A DNA stretch of 64,000 bases from Escherichia coli (GTDB taxonomy: Bacteria; Pseudomonadota; Gammaproteobacteria; Enterobacterales; Enterobacteriaceae): the NCBI RefSeq assembly GCF_003018255.1, contig NZ_CP027440.1; one strand, 5' to 3'. Below, one piece after another: positions 8,742 to 9,383 of this stretch (the first letter of the stretch is position 1; each line of letters starts with the position of its first letter). The notes beneath the pieces are model-generated. The model saw only the letters and a list, made by a program, of their open reading frames with translations. It did no database searches and was not told the origin of the DNA. Both the position numbers and the translations under genes were made by a program.

Positions 8742-9383
8742 TTAAGCGGTAATATATTCGAAGTCAGGATTGTTTAGTAGCGCTAAAATATTTTCCAGTA
8801 AACGCGGTGCAATATTATTAGTCGTCGCTTCGGGTTTCCATTGTGATATTTTAGCCATTTCCATTCCGGCATACCCACAAGGATTAATACGTAAAAATGG
8901 TGAAAGATCCATATTGACGTTTAATGCCAGACCGTGGAATGAACAACCGCGTCGAATACGTAAACCCAGTGAGCAAATTTTCTTTTCCCCGACATAGACA
9001 CCAGGCGCGTCAGCCCGAGGATGCGCTTCTATACCCAGTTCAGCCAGGGTATTCACCACTGTTTGCTCAAGCAAGGTCACCAGTTCACGCACACCGAGTT
9101 TACGGCGTTTCAGGTTAAGCAACACATACATCACCTGTTGCCCCGGCCCGTGATAAGTCACCTGCCCACCGCGATCGCTCTGAATCACCGGAATATCACC
9201 CGGCATTAAAATGTGCTCCGCCTTTCCTGCCTGCCCTTGGGTGAATACCGGATAGTGCTCGACCAGCCAGATTTCATCAAGGGTACTATCATCGCGAGTA
9301 TTGGTGAATTCATGCATAGCCTGGGAGATTGGCTCGTAAGGCTGAAGACCGAGCTGGCGGACAAGAATTTTATCCTGATACAA
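8742..9383 (-). CDS. lipB: octanoyltransferase LipB (213 aa), TTG start
   Basis: Track ORF extends to GTG 9431; known N-terminus (M)[17 protein letters not shown] maps to TTG at 9381-9383. Confidence 0.88.

Follow-up and report, generated by a model that had tools for sequence, protein, structure and literature searches.

The lipB gene of Escherichia coli K-12 MG1655 (b0630) is annotated in RefSeq at 661637-662278 as a coding sequence of 642 nt (NP_415163.2), which corresponds to initiation at a TTG codon. Experimental data on this start have also been published. In the N-terminomics table of PMC13245402 (Table S1), row 127 gives b0630 lipB as a database-annotated TIS with the near-cognate codon TTG at 662276-662278, and the TIS-indicative peptide assigned to it is MYQDKILVR, comprising residues 1-9 of P60720 from E. 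coli K-12. The support entered for this row is "Ribo-RET (BL21)" together with REPARATION ribosome profiling, the Ribo-RET evidence referring to BL21 only, and among the rows listed in that table no second lipB entry is found upstream or downstream of the site. The listing in PMC13245402 provides both an N-terminal Met (K-12) and an initiating-ribosome footprint (BL21), as would be expected of a UUG-initiated gene. Among the 688 annotated TISs given there as confirmed only 10 are TTG, and the rows of the same table include rpsT as another gene with TTG. For cya, replacement of the UUG by GUG or AUG raised the expression, according to the title of Reddy et al. 1985.

In the current analysis we have considered the lipB locus in a window of 64,000 nucleotides of E. 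coli (contig NZ_CP027440.1), in which the gene lies on the minus strand. On this strand T9383 T9382 G9381 are followed by TAT CAG GAT AAA ATT CTT GTC CGC CAG CTC GGT CTT, and the context directly 5' of the TTG (9383-9381) is ...CTCCACGGAGATGCCGTT. A sequence-only reading of the window had mapped the known N-terminus of LipB to the TTG at 9381-9383, and the minus-strand translation gives the matching 12-residue start. The same reading had placed the beginning of the longest ORF 48 nt further upstream. The mechanical list of open reading frames agrees, with a frame of 229 aa at 8742..9431 (-) opened by GTG 9431, which is situated 16 codons upstream of the TTG and shares its frame in the window, a relationship that holds only as a property of this strain. 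The features of the gene and of its start are as follows.

8742..9383, minus strand: lipB coding sequence, octanoyl/lipoyl transferase LipB, 213 codons and stop (NCBIfam, RefSeq 642-nt CDS)
9381..9383, minus strand: lipB TTG initiation codon, decoded as fMet (sequence, RefSeq, profile, conservation, N-terminal peptide)
9392..9395, minus strand: Shine-Dalgarno GGAG, 8 nt upstream of the TTG (duplex energy, cross-genus conservation)

We consider it almost certain that lipB of the window is translated from the UUG at 9383-9381 by means of the GGAG, with Met-Tyr-Gln-Asp-Lys as the N-terminus, and that GTG 9431 is a non-start which has come in frame through a deletion in a run of C. The preference for the TTG over GTG 9431, already expressed in the sequence-only reading, is borne out by the RefSeq annotation, the family profile, the Shine-Dalgarno pairing, the conservation, the frame and the published N-terminomics and Ribo-RET data, which all agree. 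N-terminal proteomics and ribosome profiling had been named there as the means of checking the start, and both the K-12 peptide MYQDKILVR and the Ribo-RET data from BL21 place it at the TTG. The UUG start of lipB is an ordinary feature that was known before, being annotated as well as experimentally established.

The product of the gene scores 366.1 bits against the NCBIfam family NF010922 (cut-off 235) and 278.9 bits against TIGR00214 (cut-off 83.55), and is a member of both. Position 2 of the NF010922 profile is aligned with the Tyr directly after the TTG, and the extension from the GTG is not covered by the profile. The neighbourhood is also that of lipB, with the ORF of YbeD at 9483..9746 (-) upstream, dacA beyond it and lipA downstream. 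When the residues are numbered from the TTG, K135 falls in GEKKICS and C169 in INPCGY (counted on the translation), and these are the catalytic Lys and Cys of LipB in E. coli numbering. Homology to the solved LipB structures 2qht and 1w66 spans the K135/C169 region. The homology to the solved LipB of T. thermophilus and M. tuberculosis begins at residue 6, the segment ILVRQLGL (6-13) being aligned from residue 3 of 2qht_A. The 16-residue extension from the GTG is therefore without a counterpart in these structures, and a LipB begun at codon 23 would lack a part of the conserved fold.

The region matches 5424 of the 5426 complete E. coli genomes at an identity of at least 95%. In the closest genome, NZ_LR778147, the RefSeq lipB is of 642 nt, and position 1918 of that locus corresponds to position 9383 of the window. 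Genomes with the 80 nt upstream of the TTG identical to those of the window have no annotated feature across that stretch, which means that the annotation has settled on the TTG also in the presence of an in-frame GTG. The exact LipB of 213 aa (with Met for the TTG) is present on 679 public contigs, and the listed members of its cluster are all of 213 aa. A collection of 15 billion proteins contains neither the 229-aa form that would begin at the GTG nor the 191-aa form that would begin at the ATG of codon 23.

The GGAG pairs with the 3' end of the 16S rRNA with an energy of -6.6 kcal/mol, a value attained by some 2-6% of the 20-mers drawn at random from the window. The hexamer cGGAGa is near-invariant among the genera of Enterobacteriaceae, and a Shine-Dalgarno sequence at the functional spacing is what is looked for in a UUG-initiated gene. 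In the proposed mechanism, the GGAG would position the 30S subunit on the lipB mRNA and the initiator fMet-tRNA would decode the UUG, such that the protein would begin with Met-Tyr-Gln-Asp-Lys. Methionine aminopeptidase is specific for the residue at position 2, and an initiator Met followed by Tyr should escape removal. The initiator Met of LipB, with Tyr next to it, would be kept for this reason.

RNA structures that could influence this step have also been considered. RNAalifold on 25 genera finds no conserved structure around the Shine-Dalgarno sequence and the start, the result being 4 pairs at -1.44 kcal/mol with no compensatory changes. The z-score of -1.97 for the fold of the single sequence is owed to a hairpin proximal to ybeD. 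An Rfam scan of positions 8500-10000 (E<=1) returns only a chance hit to Trp_leader on the opposite strand, with 18.9 bits against a gathering threshold of 41. No conserved RNA structure or Rfam element points to an additional translational control of lipB.

The stretch between ybeD and lipB contains three features that bear on the upstream GTG.

9429..9431, minus strand: GTG opening the longest ORF; not a start codon (Shine-Dalgarno absence, frame, protein absence)
9415..9418, minus strand: C-run with a length polymorphism of 1 nt, which sets the frame of the GTG relative to lipB (alignment and haplotype counts)
9422..9430, minus strand: extended -10-like motif TGaTATACT, predicted lipB promoter element (spacer alignment)

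Initiation at GTG 9431 would give a LipB of 229 aa with a 16-residue extension. Such a start is highly improbable, although the GTG opens the longest ORF in the window and E. coli as a rule initiates somewhat better at GTG than at TTG (PMC5622118). The 20 nt preceding it are pyrimidine-rich and are without a Shine-Dalgarno sequence, the pairing with 16S rRNA being +0.9 kcal/mol. The frame of the GTG is also peculiar to few strains. The C-run has 4 C in the window as against 5 C in K-12, and the extra C places the GTG out of frame with lipB in K-12, where the frame of lipB is closed upstream by a TGA at -16 and the TTG is not preceded by any canonical start. The 81-nt upstream haplotype of K-12 is found exactly in 4668 of the 5424 complete E. 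coli genomes, whereas the 80-nt haplotype of the window is found exactly in only 9 of the 5424; NZ_CP027437 is an example of a genome that has it. In the GTDB representative of E. coli, TATAAT replaces TATACT, which introduces an in-frame TAA two codons past the GTG. The variation of the C-run and this TAA indicate that E. coli itself does not keep one frame upstream of the TTG, and among genera indels shift both the frame and the length of this stretch. The GTG further overlaps the conserved -10-like motif and would for that reason probably lie upstream of the start of lipB transcription. The lack of any record of a 229-aa protein in the public collections and the position of the extension outside the family profile, described above, also argue against it.

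The start at the TTG is thus retained for the source strain, in which a 1-nt deletion in the C-run would have happened to bring GTG 9431 into the lipB frame. At most, a minor extended isoform of LipB might arise in this strain from transcripts that read through from ybeD. A rule that takes the longest ORF would mis-call lipB of the source strain by 16 codons.

When the ybeD-lipB spacers of 33 Enterobacteriaceae sequences are aligned, three conserved islands stand out amid indel-rich sequence. The first island is a hairpin just past the ybeD stop, the second is c-T-G-t-G-a-TATACT and the third is cGGAGa-N7-TTG. Within the second, the pattern TG-n-TATA(C/A)T is kept in nearly all of the 33 sequences, which represent about 30 genera of Enterobacteriaceae, and the flanks diverge with indels. 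The motif TGaTATACT resembles the extended -10 consensus TGnTATAAT. The TG of GTG 9431 is the TG of this motif, and the first base of the triplet is G, A or T among the genera; the GTG would then be made up of the TG of a promoter motif and one variable base rather than being a start. A simple sigma-70 scan for -35 and -10 elements found no promoter in the ybeD-lipB spacer, TGaTATACT having been missed because of the lack of a -35 match. The constitutive promoters reported in Shimada et al. 2014 include those of ybeF and lipA and none for lipB. The pattern of conservation suggests that TGaTATACT is probably a lipB-specific promoter without a recognisable -35 element. If it serves as the lipB promoter, the expected transcription start is near A9414, which would leave the GTG outside the lipB-specific mRNA.

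The first island corresponds to a hairpin at 9471-9447 (-), located 12 nt past the ybeD stop, with 11 pairs in the form GUUACCCGGCU-CCU-GGUCGGGUAAC. It is conserved among genera, with compensatory changes of A-U to G-C, as exemplified by TTACCCGG/CCGGGTAA replaced by TTGCCCGG/CCGGGCAA, and is not followed by a T-run. This hairpin may be a 3'-end, stability or attenuation element of ybeD. The gap between dacA and ybeD (9777-9800) has another hairpin, GC-rich and of 10 bp (AACTCCCGCC-NNNN-GGCGGGAGTT), that has a terminator-like score on both strands. The T-run of the latter belongs to the plus strand and is antisense to both genes.

A start downstream of the TTG has been considered as well.

9315..9317, minus strand: ATG at codon 23, alternative downstream start; not the start (conservation, pairing, homology)

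Initiation at this ATG (9317-9315) would give a LipB of 191 aa, and the codon is presumably the historically annotated start of the older databases. Functional LipB of E. coli is reported to start at a TTG that is 22 codons upstream of the ATG annotated at that time, and the ATG-initiated LipB is said to be non-functional. The offset of 22 codons fits the position of the ATG at codon 23 in the window. The ATG is invariant, being present at codon 23 in all the 80 orthologous loci compared (80/80), and yet we regard it as a very poor candidate for the start. Its pairing with 16S rRNA is weak (-2.5 kcal/mol). Residues 6-13 (ILVRQLGL), which precede codon 23, are conserved in the protein sequence and match the solved structures from residue 3 onward, and the NCBIfam profile likewise takes in residues upstream of codon 23. 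The N-terminal peptide that has been found is MYQDKILVR, and among the rows listed in Table S1 of PMC13245402 there is no downstream TIS for lipB. The 191-aa form is also missing from the protein collection, as mentioned earlier. The TTG is hence preferred over the ATG, and a rule that takes the first ATG would cut 22 essential N-terminal residues from LipB.

The conservation of the TTG has been analysed in a set of 80 lipB loci, with one genome per species and representing 47 genera, in which the codon aligned to the TTG of E. coli was read. TTG is present at this position in 66 of the 80 loci and in 37 of the 47 genera, these being counts without phylogenetic correction. The other codons observed include GTG (2), ATG (2) and CTG (1), the last being the sole other Leu codon. 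At codon 10, by contrast, where Leu is conserved (74 of the 80 loci), all six Leu codons occur, and TTG accounts for only 2 of the 74. Throughout lipB of the 80 orthologous loci, TTG makes up 10.4% of the Leu codons. The retention of TTG at the start, at the same time as the codons of Leu10 vary, indicates the pattern of a start codon and not of a sense codon, on counts uncorrected for phylogeny. From the upstream stop to the TTG, the lipB frame of many genera is free of any further ATG, GTG or TTG.

An in-frame ATG precedes the conserved TTG by 3-4 codons in Pectobacterium, Brenneria, Hafnia, Serratia and Yersinia. Edwardsiella, Budvicia, Photorhabdus and Xenorhabdus also have an in-frame ATG 3-4 codons upstream and still keep the TTG. 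An upstream in-frame ATG (codons -4 to 0) was recorded in 17 loci of the set. In the families with such an ATG (Yersiniaceae, Hafniaceae, Pectobacteriaceae and Morganellaceae), lipB may have two starts or may still use the TTG; alternatively, the TTG may be retained there as a Leu codon. The Enterobacteriaceae have a counterpart of this upstream ATG, which is one base out of frame.

9389..9391, minus strand: out-of-frame ATG abutting the GGAG, which opens a 61-aa ORF (9206..9391) over the 5' end of lipB (ORF list)

This ATG (9391-9389) is not conserved; E. albertii has ACG in its place, as do many other genera. The 61-aa ORF is therefore probably meaningless.

The TTG had further been taken in the sequence-only reading as a weak start codon that suggests a low translational output. 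A low output of lipB is plausible, as LipB is a protein of low abundance. Its mass fraction of the proteome is about 3-10 x 10^-5, in comparison to about 2.5-3 x 10^-4 for LipA and about 5-6 x 10^-5 for LplA (Mori et al. 2021, PMC8144880, supplementary tables). From the tables of PMC8144880, LipB is several-fold scarcer than LipA and is similar in abundance to LplA. Genes with UUG starts are in general expressed less than those with AUG starts (Belinky et al. 2017, PMC5622118). The UUG codon may help to keep LipB scarce, a link that is correlative and against which the fairly good Shine-Dalgarno sequence and the similar abundance of LplA have to be counted.

A tendency of UUG starts to be replaced by AUG or GUG has been found by Belinky et al. 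2017 (PMC5622118). The retention of the TTG of lipB across Enterobacterales despite this usual drift suggests its maintenance by selection. We tentatively propose, as a possibility that falls short of being likely, that the TTG is actively held by selection in Enterobacterales and Shewanella in order to cap the synthesis of LipB. If this is true, a stronger start codon of lipB would be deleterious, for instance by draining octanoyl-ACP. That so weak a start codon has persisted for so long is in accord with a LipB level that is held low.

The TTG could instead be the correct start and at the same time a neutral frozen accident, with the low level of LipB owed to promoter strength and mRNA stability, an explanation that we also hold to be somewhat unlikely. 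It would be in keeping with the good Shine-Dalgarno sequence, with the similar scarcity of LplA and with the finding of no regulatory RNA structure. A neutral codon would be expected to follow the drift of UUG starts to AUG or GUG (PMC5622118), but lipB keeps the TTG in 37 of the 47 genera, at a divergence that scrambles synonymous sites, and lipB of Shewanella likewise has TTG (PMC4398509). With either explanation the start itself remains at the UUG. Apart from its bearing on correct annotation the lipB start is of little significance, and only the persistence of the TTG across Enterobacterales is of mild interest.

The gap between lipB and lipA in the window is occupied by ybeF (7529-8482, minus strand), a gene for a LysR-type regulator, which is a pseudogene in comparison to NZ_LR778147 and K-12. 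Two lesions have been identified in it. The first is a deletion of 1 nt in a T-run near 8377, which shifts the frame after about codon 35, and the second, near 7953-7965, is the loss of about 397-403 bp, by which much of the 3' half is gone.

Among the known systems, lipB of E. coli K-12 (b0630, UniProt P60720, NP_415163.2) is the closest to that of the window, with the same gene order dacA-ybeD-lipB-ybeF-lipA, the same TTG, the same Shine-Dalgarno sequence and the same length of 213 aa. The window differs from K-12 in having a leader that is shorter by one C, by which the upstream GTG is in frame, and in having ybeF as a pseudogene. The lipB gene of Shewanella oneidensis resembles that of the window in its reported TTG start, which follows a short leader with the mapped TSS 20 nt upstream in that organism, and in the presence of ybeD upstream (PMC4398509). 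The lipB and lipA genes of Shewanella belong to a single operon under CRP regulation, whereas in E. coli ybeF is situated between them, and a predicted CRP site at ybeD of E. coli did not bind CRP. With other UUG-start genes of E. coli, such as rpsT and cya, lipB shares the reading of UUG by the initiator tRNA and the presence of a Shine-Dalgarno sequence.
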